Source of the DNA: Escherichia phage vB_EcoM_CRJP21
Length of the DNA: 64,000 nt
Reading direction: 5' to 3' (one strand)
Sequence record: OQ708376.1
This document shows positions 1-44,570 of this stretch, one piece after another. The notes below the pieces were generated by a model, which made no database searches, was not told where the DNA came from, and saw only the letters and a list, made by a program, of their open reading frames with translations. The position numbers and the translations under genes were made by a program. Every line of letters starts with the position of its first letter. Within the stretch, counting starts at the first letter, position 1.

Positions 1-3
1 ATA

Positions 4-267
4 ATGGCACTTCGTATCTATGAGTGCCGATCCAATAGATACAATTTTTACCAGTACAGATTTGATAAAGAAGAATTTGATAGCATCAAAATGCTAAAGA
101 ATTTATGTAACAATAAAAAGAATATGCATATATCAGAATTTGTTGCTTTGTATTTTTATTTAAAAAGTTCATTGTATATGAACACGATGCAAAGATTCGA
201 TACTAGAATTAATGTATTCACCGATAAAGAATTTTATATATACGATAAATTCTTAGATAAGGTTTAA
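4..267 (+). CDS. hypothetical protein (87 aa)
   Basis: ATG ORF in track, AT-rich codon usage, same strand as downstream gene run. Confidence 0.4.
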   Translation: MALRIYECRSNRYNFYQYRFDKEEFDSIKMLKNLCNNKKNMHISEFVALYFYLKSSLYMNTMQRFDTRINVFTDKEFYIYDKFLDKV

Positions 268-268
268 T

Positions 269-766
269 ATGACAACTGTTTATATTGATAAACGATTAAA
301 TTTATTGATTACCGATTCTAGAGTTACGTCAACTATACCACGAAACTTATTTGGTTTTTTCCCACTAAGACCAAAATATCAATATGGAGTTGTTAATCAA
401 AAAACTTTATATGTACATGACCGTTTATTCAGTGCTAGTGGGTCAGTAAGTGAAATTGATAAAGTACTGGATTGGTTAATTAATAAAGTACCAGTTATAC
501 CTGACAGAAAGTTAAGTTGCCATTGTGTGCTTCTTTCTAAAGATTATGTTATTCATATGATTTTAACTAAAGGAAAGTTTATTAAAAAACTTGAATATCT
601 ACATGAAGACTACACTTTCTTTATGGGAAGTGGTGGAGAATACATGGTAGATGCTGCTATTCATGAAGAACATACAACTTTATATGATAAAGTGTTTAGT
701 ACTTTCATGGATGTGCATAACCATGATTGCTTCACAGATGATAATATTAATGTATATCGATTTTGA
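269..766 (+). CDS. hypothetical protein (165 aa)
   Basis: ORF starts 1 nt after upstream stop (TAA-T-ATG); same-strand operon-like packing. Confidence 0.5.
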   Translation: MTTVYIDKRLNLLITDSRVTSTIPRNLFGFFPLRPKYQYGVVNQKTLYVHDRLFSASGSVSEIDKVLDWLINKVPVIPDRKLSCHCVLLSKDYVIHMILTKGKFIKKLEYLHEDYTFFMGSGGEYMVDAAIHEEHTTLYDKVFSTFMDVHNHDCFTDDNINVYRF

Positions 767-787
767 TTTCGTCATTAGGAGATGTAA

Positions 788-1753
788 GTGAAAAAGCTTG
801 ATTTAAATACAATTGCCGAAGAAGTTCTGGATGAATGTTTTTCTAATGAAGAAGTCAACACACTAGAAGCCTTAGATTTCGTTGAAGATAAAGATGAAAA
901 TGAAGGTAAAGTACAAAGCAGTTTCAAATATAATATTACACTTAAGCGACCACCAAATGTTTCCAATGAAGATCTAATTCGTGATATTCAAGCTGGTATC
1001 AATGTAAAGAAAAACACTGAACTGTTAGTTCGTTACAATTATGGACTTATTATTGATGTAGCAAGTAAATGTACTTGTTATATCCCATTTGAAGATAAGA
1101 TTTCATATGGTGTTGAGGGGTTCATGAGAGCACTAAAAACCTTTGATCTTAATAAGAATGTGAAGTTCATTACCTATGCTTCTTCTAGTATTTACATGAC
1201 AGTTTATAACGAAAGTTCTGACGCTAACTATATGGTACACTTCCCACGTTATATGAGTGTTCATAAGATCAAAGTAAAAAGATTCTGTCAGGAATATATG
1301 CGTAAACATGGTGTTCGCCCAACTCCTGAAATAATCTCAGAGGGTACTGGGATTGAGATTCAGCATGTTAATAACTGTTTGTTATTTCAAAGCGAATACA
1401 CTTCTCTGGATGCACCATTAGACGGTGTTACCGATGGTACACTAGGTGACATTATTCATTCACCTGCTTCTGATTTTAACCTCAATGTTGATAGTATTCG
1501 TGCACCTTTACGTTATGCTATCAATGAACTGACTAACGAATTGAGTACTAAAGAACGTGAGATTATCCAGCGTGTTCATGGTCTAGGTGAATATGAACCT
1601 GAAACGCTTCGTGAGATTGCTGATAATGGTTTTGTTGATGATAATGGAAAATATGTTAAATCCCGTTCATCAATACACCGAAAGTACAGTGAAGCTATGC
1701 AAAAGCTTAAGAAGTTAGTACTTGCAAAAGGGTACGAATACGAAGATTTCTAA
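788..1753 (+). CDS. sigma-70 family RNA polymerase sigma factor (regions 2, 3 and 4 recognisable)
   Basis: GTG start 7 nt after AGGAG; region 2-like YGVEGFMRALKTFDLNKNVKFITYA, region 3-like KHGVRPTPEIISEGTGIE, region 4-like LSTKEREIIQRVHGLGEYEPETLREIA; motif-level match from memory, no search run. Confidence 0.65.
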   Translation: MKKLDLNTIAEEVLDECFSNEEVNTLEALDFVEDKDENEGKVQSSFKYNITLKRPPNVSNEDLIRDIQAGINVKKNTELLVRYNYGLIIDVASKCTCYIPFEDKISYGVEGFMRALKTFDLNKNVKFITYASSSIYMTVYNESSDANYMVHFPRYMSVHKIKVKRFCQEYMRKHGVRPTPEIISEGTGIEIQHVNNCLLFQSEYTSLDAPLDGVTDGTLGDIIHSPASDFNLNVDSIRAPLRYAINELTNELSTKEREIIQRVHGLGEYEPETLREIADNGFVDDNGKYVKSRSSIHRKYSEAMQKLKKLVLAKGYEYEDF

Positions 1754-1760
1754 AGAACAA

Positions 1761-1788
1761 GGGTTGGCTTATGCCAACCTTTTTTTTA
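1761..1788 (+). terminator. intrinsic terminator (GGGTTGGC-TTAT-GCCAACC + T8)
   Basis: GC stem-loop followed by T-run directly after sigma gene stop. Confidence 0.7.
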
Positions 1789-2404
1789 TGGGATGAAGTA
1801 AAAGTTTGTGATATAATTATCTTGTACAATTCTGTTGGCATGATATTCATGTACCTGATCCACTCGAAAACGTAGAGGGCAGTTGAGCAGTCCGACAGTG
1901 CGAACAGCAAAAGAAACCCGTTAGATGTGGGCATAGTTTGAACCCCTCACGGCAATGCGGCTGTATAAAGAACCACGTTAGGATAGCTGGTGGTTCCTTG
2001 ATAGACATATAAGGATAACACCTTACGAATTATCTAAGGGAGAGTTATCGAATTTTGTACAGGAAAGTTGCGTCCAAAATTTGAGTACTCACATTAAGTA
2101 TTTGATTGCATAGATACTTAATGAAGATACACTATGTTTAAAAGTGTAGACCGTCATATGAAACTGAAGTAGAGAGAAACAGGATGACCCGCTTTCGCAC
2201 TCGTTATGAGTAATCTTCAATGCAATAGCTCTGATACCATCAGCGTCAAATTTCCCTCCTTGTGGGGGGAAGAAAAATCCCTTCCTCAAATCCCGTCAAT
2301 ATTAAAAGTCCTTGACAGTTATTAATCATTCGCGTAGAATACGTAGTATTAGAAGCGAACAGACATCTCGAAGAGATGGATGATTAACCATTAAGGAATA
2401 TCAA

Positions 2405-2614
2405 ATGAATTCAGTAATCTTTTTAGTAGTCGCTTTCTCTGTTAATTCCGGTGTACAAATAACCCCAATGAATTCCATGAATCAATGCATAGCAGTACGT
2501 GATAGTACATACGAACAAGTAAACAAAGATATTTGGATTACAGTTAGTAAAGAACAAATGTGGTGTTACAATAGTAATACTAACACAAAGCTTATTGTAG
2601 GACAAACTCAATGA
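2405..2614 (+). CDS. hypothetical small protein with N-terminal hydrophobic segment
   Basis: ORF after AGGAAT RBS-like; downstream of TTGACA-N17-TAGAAT promoter at about 2322-2350. Confidence 0.45.
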   Translation: MNSVIFLVVAFSVNSGVQITPMNSMNQCIAVRDSTYEQVNKDIWITVSKEQMWCYNSNTNTKLIVGQTQ

Positions 2615-2841
2615 GTTATGGCGTTCGTTTTGAGATTCGTTCTATTGTCATCAATGCAGAGAAACAAGTATCGTTGGATGGTGATATACGTGAAATTTAT
2701 CTATCATGTATCCGTGCGAAATCTGAAGCAGATGCCTTAGTACAAATGTATAGTTTTAACTTTTCAAATGGATTCTATTTGGTACGAGTTATTGAAGTGA
2801 AAAAAGTACTTATTGGTTGTAGCATAGAAGGATTAATGTAA
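2611..2841 (+). CDS. hypothetical protein (76 aa)
   Basis: ATGA start/stop overlap with upstream ORF. Confidence 0.45.
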   Translation: MSYGVRFEIRSIVINAEKQVSLDGDIREIYLSCIRAKSEADALVQMYSFNFSNGFYLVRVIEVKKVLIGCSIEGLM

Positions 2842-2842
2842 A

Positions 2843-3631
2843 ATGAGCACTATAGATGAACTGATTCGACGGAATTCAAAATATTACCAACCATCAGAAA
2901 TTGTAGGTAACATTACCAAATCAGAGTTTGGTCCAAATACTCGAAAACTCATTCATGTAATGTCACGTGATGGCTTTAAATGTGATTGTTGCGGTGAATC
3001 TAATGTAGTATTCACTTTACACAAGCACAGTACTAAAGATCGTTATAAATTCAGACCTTATGTACTTAAAGGGAAACGCCTTGTACGCATGACGTTAGAC
3101 CATAATGTACTGGACTGTCTTCAGGGCGGTAATGATAAAGAGAACATGACTGCACTGTGTGAAGATTGTAACGCATTACGCCAGCATAAGTTTGCTGAAT
3201 ACAGTGAGTTTAAACACTGGTATAATAACGCGGATCGTTCAATCGAGCCTGACGTTAACTACTGCTTCATTGAGTACATTAAGAATGCCAAAGATACATA
3301 CATTCTTAAATCAATGTCACCTATTACCGTGTTTCCTGAGAACCTATTCACTACATTAAAGAATAGTTTTATTGTAGGTGATATTGATGCATTCAAGTAT
3401 TTTGACAAAGGTGCAAAACATTTTGAAATTCAATGTCTTAGTACTGCACTATGTGAACTCATTAAAATTTACATAAAAGAGTATTTGGGTATTGACAATG
3501 TACGTGTACCAGAGTATACTTTTTCTATTGAATTCGATTGTGAATCAATCAAAGAGTTTGGAATTCTTTTCAATAAACAAATAGAACTTGCAATTCAAAA
3601 CGAAATCAAGTACTATACTACTAACATTTAA
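2843..3631 (+). CDS. HNH endonuclease domain protein
   Basis: HNH-like motif TLDHNVLDCLQGGNDKENMTALCEDCN plus upstream CDCCGE cysteine pair; free-standing, not inside another gene. Confidence 0.6.
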   Translation: MSTIDELIRRNSKYYQPSEIVGNITKSEFGPNTRKLIHVMSRDGFKCDCCGESNVVFTLHKHSTKDRYKFRPYVLKGKRLVRMTLDHNVLDCLQGGNDKENMTALCEDCNALRQHKFAEYSEFKHWYNNADRSIEPDVNYCFIEYIKNAKDTYILKSMSPITVFPENLFTTLKNSFIVGDIDAFKYFDKGAKHFEIQCLSTALCELIKIYIKEYLGIDNVRVPEYTFSIEFDCESIKEFGILFNKQIELAIQNEIKYYTTNI

Positions 3632-3646
3632 TCAGAGGAAATTATC

Positions 3647-3829
3647 ATGCAAATTATCATTCTTATCGTTGGCATCATGCTGGGTGTTTACGGTCACTCC
3701 TGGATGAACGAGAAGTTTCCTAATACGCGTCCTGAGTATTGCAGTTCTAATGTATTCCAGAATGGTGAGAAACCAAAGGAAAGCATTGGTAAAAAGCTGG
3801 ATAAAGTACTTGATGTGATCAATGAATAA
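3647..3829 (+). CDS. small membrane protein (60 aa)
   Basis: GAGGA RBS; N-terminal hydrophobic helix IIILIVGIMLGVY. Confidence 0.45.
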   Translation: MQIIILIVGIMLGVYGHSWMNEKFPNTRPEYCSSNVFQNGEKPKESIGKKLDKVLDVINE

Positions 3830-3839
3830 GGGCCATAAA

Positions 3840-4040
3840 ATGTTTAAACCGAATTCCAATGTTGGTAAGAAAGTTCAATTACTTGAAGATGTATCCACCA
3901 TGAGTGGAATTTTCCCAAGAGGTCACATCATGACTATTATTGCCGAAACATCCCGTGGGTGGGATTTGGAAGATGCTGATGGTAATCGCATCCTTGAGGC
4001 TGGATTCTATGGTCATCGTGAATATAAAATCGTTGATTAA
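3840..4040 (+). CDS. hypothetical protein
   Basis: ORF in track 3822-4040; ATG at 3840 has better RBS spacing (AAGGG N7 ATG). Confidence 0.45.
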   Translation: MFKPNSNVGKKVQLLEDVSTMSGIFPRGHIMTIIAETSRGWDLEDADGNRILEAGFYGHREYKIVD

Positions 4041-4136
4041 GGATACAACATGACTTTAGAGATTGTCTTTGGTATTGTTAGCTTAGTCGTCTGTGTGGGT
4101 TGGTTTGGGTATCTGATGATTTTTAGTGATTAATAC

Positions 4137-4165
4137 TTGACATAAGATATCAGTACTGTATAATG
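4137..4165 (+). promoter_or_regulatory. sigma-70-type promoter TTGACA-N17-TGTATAAT
   Basis: consensus -35 and extended -10 with AGTACTG immediately upstream of -10. Confidence 0.6.
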
Positions 4166-4209
4166 TTTATATCAAACGAAATCCACTTTAACAAATGATA
4201 GGAAATATT

Positions 4210-4488
4210 ATGTCTTTTTCTAAAGAAGAACGTGACCTTATTAAAAAAGCAATCTGGTTTTATGCTAATGAAGGGAAGTGCGATGAAGAAAAAGCACGTG
4301 AACTGTGTAATATCTTTGAGAAGAAACAAGATCTAAAAGTGTATCGTATCCGTGATTTGGATGAAGGGGATCGTATTGTCCTAGCTGAAACAAAAGAAGA
4401 AGCAGAACAAATCTTCACTGATAAAAACGAAAATCCACATTGGATGGAAGAAGTCTGTGATGTTAAAAAAGGTACTTATATCGATTGA
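4210..4488 (+). CDS. hypothetical protein (92 aa)
   Basis: ORF downstream of promoter 4137-4165; ATG at 4210 preceded by AGGAAA. Confidence 0.5.
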   Translation: MSFSKEERDLIKKAIWFYANEGKCDEEKARELCNIFEKKQDLKVYRIRDLDEGDRIVLAETKEEAEQIFTDKNENPHWMEEVCDVKKGTYID

Positions 4489-4513
4489 CAGTACTGAATA
4501 ATAGCAGTATTAT
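4485..4513 (+). promoter_or_regulatory. promoter TTGACA-N17-TATTAT
   Basis: sigma-70-like hexamers overlapping 3' end of upstream ORF. Confidence 0.5.
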
Positions 4514-4526
4514 GTTTTATATAAAA

Positions 4527-4586
4527 GGGAATGCAGTGAAAGGAAAGACAGCATAATCGTACTCGTCACTGCGTTCCCGCCCTTTT
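4527..4586 (+). other. long imperfect hairpin (13 bp arms GGGAATGCAGTGA / TCACTGCGTTCCC) followed by T-run, in 5' leader
   Basis: inverted repeat read directly; lies between promoter 4485-4513 and gene 4608. Confidence 0.5.
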
Positions 4587-4607
4587 AAATTAAATGAGGA
4601 ATTAACT

Positions 4608-4916
4608 ATGTTTCAAACTAACACTCAAGGTTTTGTAATCATCGATTTGAATCAAAACAGCGGTCATTGGATGAAACCTACTGACGCATGTATGCAGTTT
4701 GATTTCTTAGGTTACAAAATTAGTGTAAGTACTGGTGCTTCTGTACTGAGAGGTGGTTGTATCGTTGAACATCTGGTAACTGATCCAGAAGGTCGTGAGT
4801 ATGAAATCGCAGGTTCAGTACAAGATGCCATTATGTTTGTATGTCAGCGTGAAATGAATGGTTCGAATTCAAATGCACTGACTCATGCTCTTTCTCAAGA
4901 AGTGGAGGTTCGTTAA
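4608..4916 (+). CDS. hypothetical protein (102 aa)
   Basis: ORF with GAGGA RBS. Confidence 0.55.
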   Translation: MFQTNTQGFVIIDLNQNSGHWMKPTDACMQFDFLGYKISVSTGASVLRGGCIVEHLVTDPEGREYEIAGSVQDAIMFVCQREMNGSNSNALTHALSQEVEVR

Positions 4917-5161
4917 TGAAATACATTGTAGCAGTACTCGTCGCATTTCTACTCACTGCATGTGATGCTTCTACCAAAGAACGTACAAGTGATTTTGTTC
5001 TACCTGCTGAATTAAAAGAAGCAGGGTGTAAGATTTATCGTATGCAACAAGATGGTGCTGGTGCGACTTTATACACTGTGTACTGTCCTAATGCAAATAC
5101 AAGTACTGGATACACTAGCGGTAAAACACGAATCAACACTTCCGTAATTCATGGAGAATAA
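4916..5161 (+). CDS. putative lipoprotein (signal peptide with lipobox LTAC)
   Basis: N-terminus MKYIVAVLVAFLLTAC; ATGA overlap with upstream gene. Confidence 0.55.
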   Translation: MKYIVAVLVAFLLTACDASTKERTSDFVLPAELKEAGCKIYRMQQDGAGATLYTVYCPNANTSTGYTSGKTRINTSVIHGE

Positions 5162-5163
5162 CA

Positions 5164-5532
5164 ATGAGCCTTGATACAACACGTGCAGCAGATTTATTAA
5201 CTCGTCTGAATGATGAAGAATATCTTGCTGAGATAAAGTACAAGCTTGACAAACTTGTTCGAAGTGCTGAAGTAATTGAAGTTGAAGGTCACTTACCGAT
5301 GGATCAATACCATAGGTTCAAGGAAGATATGGTTTATTATCCTAATGAAATTTGGATTGAGTGGCAACATTGGACTAACAAAACTCTTCGCATTGAAGGG
5401 TATTGTGTGAAGTATGAAAGTTCACCTGGTGATGTTACAAAAACTCTATCAATTTGGTGTACAAAAACAAATGAACTCGTTGAGGTGAATTTGAATTATA
5501 TGAATGGATTCCGTTGGGGTGATGTTAAATGA
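5164..5532 (+). CDS. hypothetical protein (122 aa)
   Basis: ORF, tight packing. Confidence 0.5.
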   Translation: MSLDTTRAADLLTRLNDEEYLAEIKYKLDKLVRSAEVIEVEGHLPMDQYHRFKEDMVYYPNEIWIEWQHWTNKTLRIEGYCVKYESSPGDVTKTLSIWCTKTNELVEVNLNYMNGFRWGDVK

Positions 5533-5804
5533 TTAAAAAACTCTTGACTGGAATCATTGTGTGCAGTACAATGTTTCTTACAGCATGTAATGATGACGGC
5601 AGGTTTAGTGCAAAAGACTTAGTTCGTCAGGATTGTACATTCACAGGTAAGTCTTTTATTAACGAGTATGAAATATGTACACAATCAGGTCGTATCTGTG
5701 GTGGTTGGGAAAAACGTCAGGAGCGATTGTATGTATATGAATGCCCTGGACATCACAACAAAGTACTAAGCACACACAAACTTGTTTATGATAAGGTTGA
5801 ATAA
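5529..5804 (+). CDS. putative lipoprotein (lipobox LTAC)
   Basis: N-terminus MIKKLLTGIIVCSTMFLTAC; several Cys downstream. Confidence 0.55.
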   Translation: MIKKLLTGIIVCSTMFLTACNDDGRFSAKDLVRQDCTFTGKSFINEYEICTQSGRICGGWEKRQERLYVYECPGHHNKVLSTHKLVYDKVE

Positions 5805-6019
5805 TGACTACCAATGAAATGATGCAGGTTATTTGGGATAAAGGTTGTGATATTAAAATCACTAGTACTGATGTTCGTGTATTCAAAACTGAATATATGG
5901 AGTACTTGGACCTTGATACTTATAATAATATTGTATCAATTGAACACAAAGGTGCAGTACTGGAAACCATTGACGTAGTACTCAAGAAAGCTACCGACCT
6001 ATTAGGAGTGGCAGTGTGA
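5804..6019 (+). CDS. hypothetical protein (71 aa)
   Basis: ORF, start overlaps upstream stop. Confidence 0.45.
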   Translation: MTTNEMMQVIWDKGCDIKITSTDVRVFKTEYMEYLDLDTYNNIVSIEHKGAVLETIDVVLKKATDLLGVAV

Positions 6020-12957: not shown

Positions 12958-13072
12958 TTTAACTTTGGGACAACCATTCTTATTATGATATAATGTTTTA
13001 TGTCATTCGATATAAATGACAACGGAACTATAAATATTATAGTAAAATTTATCTCTTATAGGAGTTATAAAA

Positions 13073-43585: not shown

Positions 43586-44570
43586 TTAAACACAAGTAGA
43601 CAGGGGAAGCTCCTAGTGAACAACCTTTATGTACAGGCGAATTGTTAAAATTCAGCCTGGACAAATGCGATCACTAGGATTCTCCCCAGGCTAAACCCCG
43701 TAATCATAGGTAGTCATAAGTAATCATATATAAACATTTATATGAGCACCGTAGAATCACAGAATGATTATATATGATTCAGTACTGATTAGTATAGACA
43801 AGAATTCTCAAGAATGCACGGGAAGGATTCAGTACTGATATGCCACTAAGTAGGCAGAGGAAGTCTGCCGTACTTTGTAGTTTCCAAGCTCCTTTTCCAT
43901 TTTTCAAATTACATCAAATGTAATCAAAAGTAATCACGCAATGATTAGTACTGAATTATTACTTTCACCTTAATTACAATTACCCTTTTACCCTTCGGGG
44001 TAAAATTCAATTACCCCTTGAGGCTCCAGCAAAAAGTTGGTTAGTACTCCATCCTAAATCTCGATCCTAAAAATTTTGGAGTACCTATGAAATAAAAGTT
44101 GGATCTTCGAAAGTTGAAATTTACGTTGGGACGTTTATGATTTGTGGGATATAATGATGTTTGTAGACGGGTAGTTCTCAAGAATATCAGTACTGAAAGA
44201 TGAAAGAAAGTTATTGACTTTATGATTCAGTACTGTATAATGTTCTACATAGGGTGATGAGTTGCTGCGAACAATTCATTTACTCTACCTCCTGTCGTGA
44301 GACAGTACAGAAAAGATAGTTCCTCCTGTGGTGGTACATCTTTTTGAACCTCATATGAAAATCGTAATAACAGTACTGATATTAACAGAATGGTGTCAGT
44401 ACTGATTTTAATCTAAAGCATTATGCCACCAGCACAAGCTGGTGGATTCCCTCTAACAGTATTCAGTACTACATGATGGTCTTCATCCTCCTAGGGTAAC
44501 ATAGTGAGGGCTATGATGGCAGTACTGAATACTCCCTTTCAAAAGATAGATCTATGGTATAGTACTGACG

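Follow-up and report, generated by a model that had tools for sequence, protein, structure and literature searches.

We analysed a stretch of 64,000 nucleotides (nt) from Escherichia phage vB_EcoM_CRJP21 (OQ708376.1). We call the whole stretch the window and count positions from its first letter. Between a sigma-factor gene and the next start codon, at positions 1789-2404, lies what is very probably a structured RNA gene of a new family. A sequence-only reading of the window had suggested that this region could encode a structured RNA or be a mobile-element remnant, and the coordinates that it gave are almost exactly the extent of the RNA gene. Covariation, which points to a pseudoknotted fold on the + strand, supports the first half of that suggestion. 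The second half does not hold: given its conserved promoter, the antiquity and synteny of its paralogs, and the intactness of its fold, we regard it as a gene of a previously undescribed family rather than a remnant. As for its function, the best explanation that we have, in which our confidence is about even, is a self-contained gene for a new RNA that acts as RNA, most likely in trans.

We searched for homologs by running sensitive blastn with positions 1760-2410 against 50,697 phage records. Just 61 records matched, and all of these are Rak2-like jumbo phages with genomes of 310-386 kb. (Their hosts are Escherichia, Salmonella, Klebsiella aerogenes, Cronobacter, Erwinia, Pectobacterium, Serratia, Yersinia, and Xanthomonas.) The sequence-only reading had proposed alignment to related phages as a check, and this check comes out in favor of the RNA: the region has about 70% nucleotide identity across phage genera. 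Specifically, a core of about 450 nt (roughly 1853-2310 in the window) is still about 70% identical in distant relatives whose intergenic DNA would otherwise be unalignable, which supports the interpretation as an RNA gene. We found homologs in all of the Rak2-like jumbo phage genera that we sampled, yet Alcyoneusvirus RaK2 and K64-1 had no blastn match, so the RNA is not universal in this clade. For a wider sample, we scanned IMG/VR, GTDB genomes, and JGI metagenomes for conserved motifs and then used nhmmer. This yielded 87 unique full-length copies, with a mean pairwise identity of 66%. The nhmmer match to the window copy covers 1852-2304 (E = 3e-132). Loci from the pattern scans that lacked nhmmer support (such as our loci L017, L019, L021, and L062) were treated as chance matches.

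The evidence for a fold comes from how these copies vary. We aligned them with MAFFT, which was given no structural information, and we used two alignments: A2, with 39 sequences, and A4, with 54 sequences including bacterial copies. (In A4, no two sequences are above about 0.93 by string-similarity ratio.) The alignments show highly conserved unpaired blocks between hairpins, and the arms of those hairpins change in compensatory ways. RNAalifold predicted 64 pairs, 39 of which have compensatory double substitutions. Mutual information (MI), with average product correction, recovered the same helices plus four that cross them (the long-range helix T1 and the pseudoknots PKa, PKb, and PKc), and later a fifth (PK0). 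In A2, 91.3% of cells are paired, versus 35-41% if the partners are slid by 1-3 columns, and there are double changes at 66 of 99 pairs. In A4, 96.6% are paired, versus 35-42% when slid, with double changes at 70 of 82 pairs. The compensated pairs include long-range ones, more than 100 nt apart. The covariation score for A4 is 0.535, versus less than 0.09 in controls, and none of 500 shuffles reached the observed value on any of five measures. Also, G-U pairs often alternate with A-U or G-C pairs, which indicates that the RNA is on the + strand. Thus, the potential stems that the sequence-only reading had noticed are real by comparative analysis. (The folding energy of the single sequence is uninformative for this region, with z around -1.7 on both strands.)

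The stop-free stretches in the 54 homologs have median lengths of 52 amino acids (aa) on the + strand and 75 aa on the - strand, against a median of 66.5 for shuffled sequences, and we judged them to be no longer than shuffled. In about 1824-2300, the fold, and not any reading frame, is shown to be under selection. Besides the helices, several unpaired junction sequences are invariant: GAAACCCG, CGGCAAUGCGGC, GAUAGACAUAUA, UAAGGGAG, AGAAACAG..ACCCGCUU, and two CGUCAR motifs.

We then asked how the copies are distributed within genomes. By blastn, each matching genome has the RNA in 3-5 separate places. This phage has about four ancient paralogs, and no further copy was found within the 64-kb window. 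The TH47 paralog, used as a query, finds its own orthologs, such as one in SP27 (191,055-191,750) that lies 102 kb away from the window copy. Paralogs within one genome are 67-75% identical, and each copy belongs to a paralog group with its own conserved neighbors across genera. For instance, one group lies downstream of genes for a gp46/SbcC-like ATPase and an endonuclease VII-like protein, and another is followed by a Dam-like methylase. The duplications are therefore older than the genera, and every copy was kept. No adjoining protein gene is common to all copies, as the neighbors differ between paralog groups; this fits a stand-alone RNA. Within a genome, all copies share one strand, and any two of them are at least about 40 kb apart. 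Serratia phage BF (357 kb), for instance, has its five copies at 30, 93, 175, 259, and 335 kb. Five points placed at random would have a minimum gap as large as this with a probability of about 0.005, but other genomes have orthologous sets and so do not test this independently.

In GenBank, the region is left blank, is labelled in part as a repeat_region (in UE-S1), or is covered by 1-5 hypothetical open reading frames (ORFs). Our own comparisons also turned up "shared ORFs" and ORF "protein families" over the element, which we rejected as antisense artefacts of the nucleotide conservation. Separately, genes for ADP-ribosylglycohydrolase-like proteins lie near the RNA in an island (L068, from an Enterobacteriaceae metagenome-assembled genome, 5.4 kb upstream) and in phages, where they are just downstream of one paralog (L044, L058, L023, and L030). 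The island and phage proteins are 27-28% identical to each other.

Next, we compared the RNA to known families. At the gathering threshold, Rfam 15 has no match anywhere in the window. At E <= 10, positions 1650-2500 have only weak matches (at most 19 bits), with the lowest E-values on the sigma-gene terminator, and eight other loci, including bacterial copies, have no family on the element. The families covered include group I and group II introns, RNase P, tmRNA, 6S, GOLLD, ROOL, HEARO/omega RNA, OLE, raiA, pRNA, and hammerhead. The sequence-only reading had proposed an Rfam scan for group I introns or small RNA families, and neither was found. It had also suggested that the lack of a structural RNA hit would argue against an RNA, which is misleading here: the fold is supported despite the lack of a match, and Rfam is silent because the family is novel, not because structure is absent. 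ARAGORN found no tRNA or tmRNA genes in the 64 kb.

Two other candidates were rejected by direct comparison. The arrangement GAUGAG-hairpin-CGAA resembles a hammerhead ribozyme, but there is an A at position 4, the window copy has a U at position 6 (GUUGAG), position 15.1 varies, Rfam has no match, and the variation among copies gives this reading no support. The RNA-seq-defined ncRNA001 and ncRNA002 of PA5oct, a related jumbo phage, are not homologous to the RNA by nhmmer --max. In the literature, we found no description of the element, and it may sit unnamed among 10,006 listed candidate viral structured RNAs.

The sequence-only reading overlooked the region's own promoter, which starts at the first base of the region (Table 1). 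Nearly every copy that we examined, from phages or bacteria, is preceded by TGAAAC, TGGAAC, TGGGAY, or TGAGAC, then N17 and (TGn)TATAAT, although the -35-like hexamer of a few copies departs from these forms. The window has the variant TGGGAT-N17-TATAAT with an extended -10 (1789-1817). This fits the definition of the "divergent RpoD-like" promoters of Rak2-like phages. In phages CBB and GAP32, that class has a -35 of TGAAACG in place of TTGACA and a classic -10, and these promoters are concentrated before DNA-synthesis genes (PMC5259590). On the + strand of the window, the class has three sites, at 1789, 12966, and 44127. The latter two (12966-12994 and 44127-44155) are TGGGAC-N17-(TGn)GATATAAT promoters, and neither has a homolog of the RNA behind it. 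Promoters of this class may be the middle promoters of the phage, and the sigma factor (788-1753) possibly reads them.

At the other end, no paralog group has an intrinsic terminator after the core. Instead, the core is followed by a conserved, promoter-rich module, with a -35-like GTGTTGAAC, a hairpin with the loop AACGNAGUGA, and a TTGACW-N17-TAnAAT promoter. The arms of this hairpin co-vary, and homologous modules follow other copies. In the window, the module spans 2301-2404, as far as the RBS and ATG of the 69-aa ORF, and it may or may not be part of the RNA. It contains the TTGACA-N17-TAGAAT box that the sequence-only reading had placed at about 2322-2350. The box does exist, at 2312-2340, which is ten bases further upstream, and since it is downstream of the RNA core, it most likely serves the following genes rather than the RNA.

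We also noticed other features near the ends of the RNA. About half of the copies, not including the window's, have a terminator-like hairpin and U-run between P15 and P16 (equivalent to about 2250; for example L009:2130-2175, L028, and L166). The group-B paralogs have another terminator-like hairpin in the leader, between the promoter and the PK0 motif. These internal hairpins may act as attenuators, or they may point to alternative isoforms of the RNA. Furthermore, in many copies, GTAC is strikingly frequent in the 100 nt after the core and in the loops of variable hairpins (AGTAC, GTACTG).

The RNA is also found in bacteria. There are full-length homologs in the chromosomes of Serratia fonticola, Serratia sp., Citrobacter amalonaticus, Silvania hatchlandensis, Enterobacter chinensis, Buttiauxella, and other Enterobacteriaceae. 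In E. coli, 2 of 5,426 complete genomes carry it. None of 72,556 plasmids matched. The bacterial copies are in small integrative islands of Enterobacterales, with one copy per island, usually 150-400 nt downstream of the integrase. (The integrase is either a large serine recombinase of 520-703 aa or a tyrosine integrase of 423 aa.) The RNA faces a convergent gene for a CI/LexA-like repressor, with a Ner-like gene beyond it. In E. coli, the island is about 11 kb, is inserted next to ffs, and has the RNA in an unannotated gap of 1.4 kb. For example, the island of strain LR-29-1 (L166; NZ_AP027515, 10849-21600) lies between ffs and ybaA. It contains a tyrosine integrase split by IS3, the RNA, a membrane/coiled-coil protein, a resolvase, and a candidate defence system, PDC-M45 (DuOB + DUF488 + mSLOG/DUF4326). 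We did not find a phage homolog of the membrane/coiled-coil protein.

Overall, these islands have an integrase, a site next to ffs, the CI-like/Ner-like pair, and defence cargo, and they lack genes for replication, packaging, or transfer. Islands with an integrase and defence genes and without transfer genes are known as satellites of a Pseudomonas jumbo phage, and how they recognize the phage is unknown (PMC12595487). In sequence comparisons, the bacterial copies of the RNA interleave with the phage copies. The RNA from the E. coli island is 82% identical to a copy from Serratia phage BF, whereas its identity to the other island copies does not exceed 72%, so phages and islands have exchanged the gene. 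The promoters vary as well: the E. coli island has TGGGAT, as in the E. coli Asteriusviruses, and the other islands have TGAAAC.

The features of the RNA and its surroundings are listed in Table 1. The leader that follows the promoter belongs to the RNA because of the PK0 pairing. The two CGUCAA/CGUCAR motifs flank P16, and by MI they co-vary identically, not complementarily. Pairing between the 3' tail and the downstream sequence was not above shuffled controls. An extended closing helix, GAUGAG with CUCGUC, was considered and rejected, as variation gives no support for it. Most phage copies contain the P9 module (UACAAUAUAGAUCCGUCCAAAAUU) once; some phage copies and the bacterial copies contain it twice. 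In bacterial copies, the second module is inside the P14 loop (for example in L166, L071, and L069). This suggests that the module may be a transplantable unit for tertiary contacts or for protein binding.

Table 1. Features of the RNA gene and its flanks, in window coordinates (P, paired region; PK, pseudoknot; RBS, ribosome-binding site).
Feature	Position	Strand	Basis or remark
Sigma-gene intrinsic terminator	1759..1788	+	10-bp stem + T-run; upstream boundary, outside the RNA
-35-like element TGGGAT	1789..1794	+	same spacing kept before phage and bacterial copies
Extended -10 TGTGATATAAT	1807..1817	+	sequence and alignment of upstream regions; predicted transcription start ~1824
Structured RNA (leader + core; helices P0-P16; five pseudoknots/long-range helices)	1824..2300	+	nhmmer, covariation
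PK0, 5' strand (leader motif CUGUUGG)	1832..1838, pairs with P2 loop 1892-1898	+	8/8 pairs compensatory, 90.8% paired; MI agrees
P0, leader hairpin CAUGA UAU UCAUG	1839..1851	+	equivalent hairpin covaries in other copies
P1, hairpin with conserved loop GAAAAnGUA	1855..1882	+	double changes at 6/8 pairs
Conserved GAUGAG, then P2 hairpin	1883..1901 (P2 1887-1901)	+	P2-P4 stretch 100% paired
P3	1904-08 with 1960-64	+	100% paired
P4	1918-21 with 1949-52	+	100% paired
P5, variable hairpin	~1924-1948	+	MI
T1, long-range helix spanning P6: AAUG 1955-57 with CAU 2006-08	1955..2008	+	G-C to A-U in 10/54 sequences
P6	1970-75 with 1991-96	+	double changes at 6/6 pairs
PKa: P6 loop GAU 1982-84 with AUC 2032-34, just before invariant UAAGGGAG	1982..2034	+	MI; in A2, 3/3 double changes, 84% paired
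P7, enclosed by PKa	2010-13 with 2022-25	+	
P8, encloses P9 module	2042-44 with 2088-90	+	
P9 module, UACA..AGUUGCGUCCAAAAUU	2052-60 with 2072-80	+	P8/P9 stretch 98.6% paired
P10, 12-bp hairpin; 8-nt loop 2104-2111 forms PKb	2092..2123	+	double changes at 12/12 pairs
PKb: G2104 with C2164; AUUGCAU 2105-11 with AUGCAAU 2220-26	2104..2226	+	7/7 pairs compensatory, 99.7% paired
P11	2128-30 with 2146-48	+	
PKc: GUCAU 2153-57 with AUGAC 2184-88 in P13 loop	2153..2188	+	100% paired, double changes at 3/5
P12	2165-69 with 2215-19	+	A4 count; stretch 2165..2219 includes invariant AGAAACAG....ACCCGCUU
P13	2172-76 with 2192-96	+	A4 count
P14	2199-2201 with 2209-11	+	A4 count
P15, hairpin ending in first CGUCAA (2244-2249)	2233..2249 (P15 2233-47)	+	weak: poor alignment register, 32% paired on A2
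P16, G+C-rich hairpin with invariant G-run	2252..2271	+	one-sided (G-C/G-U) variation only
3' tail, second CGUCAA 2294-2299	2272..2300	+	alignment; last block kept in all copies
Downstream conserved module: TTGACA 2312-17 / TAGAAT 2335-40, ACGUAGUAU 2341-49, hairpin 2364-2378	2301..2404	+	
RBS AAGGAA of 69-aa ORF	2393-98	+	before ATG at 2405

What might the RNA do? To our knowledge, large, highly conserved, pseudoknotted RNAs are rare, and nearly all such classes with a known function are ribozymes, guide RNAs, or cores of important ribonucleoproteins (RNPs). We rank a trans-acting machine or scaffold first because of the complexity of the fold and because of the invariant junctions, which are held by five pseudoknots, as is typical of ribozymes, RNP cores, and GOLLD/ROOL. 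Judging from these sequence features, a trans-acting mode of action has just short of an even chance. In this scenario, host RNA polymerase and a phage factor would transcribe the RNA at early or middle times. The RNA would fold into a compact particle and would act in trans, whether as a ribozyme, as an assembly made of RNA only, or as the scaffold of an RNP. Having several gene copies would then be a matter of dosage, and an island with a copy of its own could use it to exploit, or to interfere with, the phage process in which the RNA takes part.

Four points weigh against a trans-acting RNA or against the evidence for it. First, the structure was derived from the sequences on which the pairs were counted, and the controls leave some phylogenetic relatedness. 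Second, full sets of copies are more evenly spaced than chance, which hints at a cis-type role. Third, one would usually expect a terminator after an independent trans-acting RNA, and the core has none. Fourth, the island copies, with no partner protein, point towards a locus-bound role.

The alternative that survives best is a cis role in a replication origin. Here, the transcript would form or position an R-loop or a primer, in the manner of the T4 oriF/oriG middle-promoter transcripts or of ColE1 RNA II. The 3-5 copies would be the phage's origins, and each island would have its copy so as to be replicated, and hence mobilized, by an infecting jumbo phage. We consider this unlikely but worth taking seriously. 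The dispersal of the copies on one strand, with a minimum gap larger than random (as in BF), would fit origins. The RNA shares its promoter class with the DNA-synthesis genes of CBB, before which such promoters are enriched, and the core ends without a terminator and is followed by the invariant G-run and A+T-rich DNA. The origins of phage T4 have middle-mode promoters, which parallels the RNA's promoter class. Also, the islands carry single copies alongside an integrase and no replication or packaging genes, the -35 type of an island's promoter matches the phages of that host, and similar islands are jumbo-phage satellites in Pseudomonas (PMC12595487). On the other hand, known origin transcripts are less ornate, and five pseudoknots with invariant junctions look more like a ribozyme or an RNP core. 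A plasmid origin of the ColE1 RNA II type was rejected, as no plasmid matched. No iterons or initiator gene were noted beside the copies, and no dedicated scan for these was made. The spacing statistic rests on orthologous genomes that are not independent, and the two Alcyoneusvirus phages (RaK2 and K64-1) have no blastn match.

Alternatively, the RNA could act in cis on transcription, as a giant leader that modifies its polymerase (processive antitermination) or that gates the downstream genes. Such a leader is quite unlikely. It would account for the absence of a terminator between the core and the downstream genes, with which the copies are co-directional, and it would supply the read-through that is needed at the internal terminator-like hairpins, both those in about half of the copies and those in the group-B leaders. 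There is also a precedent: in phage HK022, paralogous put sites lie behind the early promoters. However, here and in many other copies, a good sigma-70-type promoter lies between the RNA and the downstream genes. In islands, including that of S. fonticola, the next gene (the CI-like repressor) is on the opposite strand, so there is no operon for the RNA to lead. And the size and complexity of the RNA are far above those of known antitermination RNAs.

Three further alternatives are each very unlikely. The region could be a repeat that functions only as DNA and not as RNA, such as a cluster of promoters and operators or a protein-binding region, which would agree with the conserved promoter elements at both ends and with the repeat_region label in UE-S1. 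We think that this is very unlikely: protein-binding DNA would keep its sequence, not its complementarity, but 70 of 82 pairs have compensatory double substitutions, some of them more than 100 nt apart, and the G-U pattern is strand-specific.

It is similarly hard to credit a mobile element or self-splicing intron, whether as a remnant or active. The RNA is multi-copy, dispersed, and common to phages and bacterial islands, and a homing-type HNH gene is 440 bp downstream of it in the window. One motif, AUAUAGAUCC, superficially resembles the group I "S" element. But even at E <= 10, Rfam has no intron, ribozyme, or omega-RNA match, and the copies are between genes and behind their own promoters, not inside ORFs. 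(A group I intron in particular was rejected because the element is between a terminator and a start codon, has its own promoter, has no Intron_gpI match, and has an order of helices unlike the P3/P7 nesting.) The paralogs, at 67-75% identity, are old, and their synteny extends across genera, which implies no recent mobility. The HNH genes are not consistently adjacent to the copies, and no flanking repeats or adjacent transposases were noted in the phages, where these were not specifically searched for.

Finally, small proteins encoded over the region, as suggested by the 1-5 hypothetical ORFs under the match in several records and by - strand ORFs of 53-75 aa in the window, have a negligible chance of being the explanation, as there is no conserved open frame, ORF lengths are no longer than shuffled, the substitutions are pair-compensatory and not codon-like, and a shared frame would be disrupted by hairpins of variable length and by inserts that are not the same in all copies.

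It is useful to compare the RNA to known systems. The closest in kind may be GOLLD and ROOL, the large "ornate" RNAs of phages and prophages, which have been studied by cryo-electron microscopy (cryo-EM; PMC12286853). Like them, our RNA is hundreds of nucleotides long, is pseudoknotted, is on phages or mobile DNA, has no consistently linked protein gene, and is of unknown function. Unlike them, it is found in Gammaproteobacteria and their jumbo phages, it has 3-5 dispersed paralogs per genome with a phage-specific promoter before each, and it is not beside tRNA genes (there are none in the 64-kb window). Also, there is no match in sequence or structure.

The RNAs of the T4 origins oriF and oriG and of ColE1 (RNA II) are similar in that they are transcribed from a defined promoter (middle-mode, in T4) and have no terminator. 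T4 also has several origins per genome, and RNA II is about 550 nt, with a fold that matters and a G-rich segment near its 3' part. In contrast, our RNA is far more elaborate and conserved, with its five pseudoknots and invariant junctions, it is not on plasmids, and it has no identified antisense regulator or RNase H site. The put sites of HK022 are paralogous copies directly behind phage promoters whose nascent RNA folds and which have no terminator of their own, but put is about 70 nt with two stem-loops. Our RNA is about 480 nt and is often followed by an independent promoter, and its island copies face convergent genes. The pRNA of phi29 is another phage-encoded structured RNA with co-varying complementarity between loops. 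By analogy, PKb, a pairing of 7-8 bp between a loop and a strand, could in principle be intermolecular, as in pRNA. However, pRNA is 174 nt and single-copy, while our RNA has no Rfam match and no link to packaging.

The islands can be compared to the published satellites of Pseudomonas jumbo phages (PMC12595487). Both are small, have an integrase and defence cargo (which in E. coli is PDC-M45), and lack transfer genes, and both insert beside a small-RNA gene (ffs here, tmRNA-adjacent there). The difference is that no RNA element is reported for the Pseudomonas islands, and that the enterobacterial islands are only candidates for mobilization by Rak2-like phages.

The genes around the RNA are mostly as the sequence-only reading had described. 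The first 6 kb of the window is most similar to Escherichia phages SP27, vB_EcoM_E9.1, JP4, and slurp01 (99.2-99.4% identity), followed by PBECO4 and 121Q (97-98%). All six are Asteriusvirus, which are Rak2-like jumbo phages of about 350 kb. The upstream gene (788-1753, +) encodes a sigma-70-family factor with regions 2, 3, and 4, and it ends in a strong intrinsic terminator (1759-1782 and a T-run). As had been claimed, the region sits between this terminator and the next start codon and lacks any + strand ORF that reaches 60 aa. (The two longest have 34 aa, at 1771-1875, and 39 aa, at 2206-2325; on the - strand, there are ORFs of 75, 53, and 66 aa.) The raised local G+C content is also correct (0.445 at 1801-2000 versus 0.31-0.36 in the flanks), as are the small ORFs downstream, of 69 aa (2405-2614) and 76 aa (2611-2841). 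The claimed free-standing HNH endonuclease is a 262-aa protein (2843-3631, +). Annotations of its relatives and a DH..N..CxxC motif agree with that label, and Pfam has no match at E <= 0.01. HNH genes do not consistently adjoin other copies of the RNA.

Two other observations concern the start of the window. An ORF of 165 aa (269-766, +) that begins with MTTVY has no Pfam match at E <= 0.01. It is probably the counterpart of the "ATP-dependent protease (subunit HslV)" that is annotated in the homologous 6-kb region of phages fEgEco12 and Turkey3. Also, megablast with window positions 1-6000 finds three places per phage record. This implies that the genome repeats some other segment at an identity of at least 85%. 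With paralogs of only about 70% identity, the RNA is not that segment.

Annotation has overlooked the RNA, which lies in regions that are blank or mis-annotated as hypothetical proteins. The comparative signal is strong, with five pseudoknots or long-range helices and compensation at most pairs. With our alignment, about 250 loci in public phage genomes can be annotated correctly, and the RNA becomes a ready target for cryo-EM and for genetics. The hosts are tractable: jumbo phages of E. coli, Salmonella, Erwinia, and Serratia are in culture and are being developed for therapy or biocontrol. The same evidence allows for a new class of natural ribozyme. And because a phage-type promoter and the RNA occur together in integrase islands that carry defence genes, the RNA bears on the question of how such islands parasitise jumbo phages. 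We can imagine, as a rather unlikely reading, that jumbo phage and satellite are physically linked by the RNA locus: a folded RNA of the origin type, or otherwise bound to its locus, at 3-5 evenly spread sites, which the islands would have copied, together with its promoter, for activation, amplification, and mobilization. If this is true, it would be the first helper-satellite interface at the level of RNA, and a new class of ornate RNA in DNA replication.

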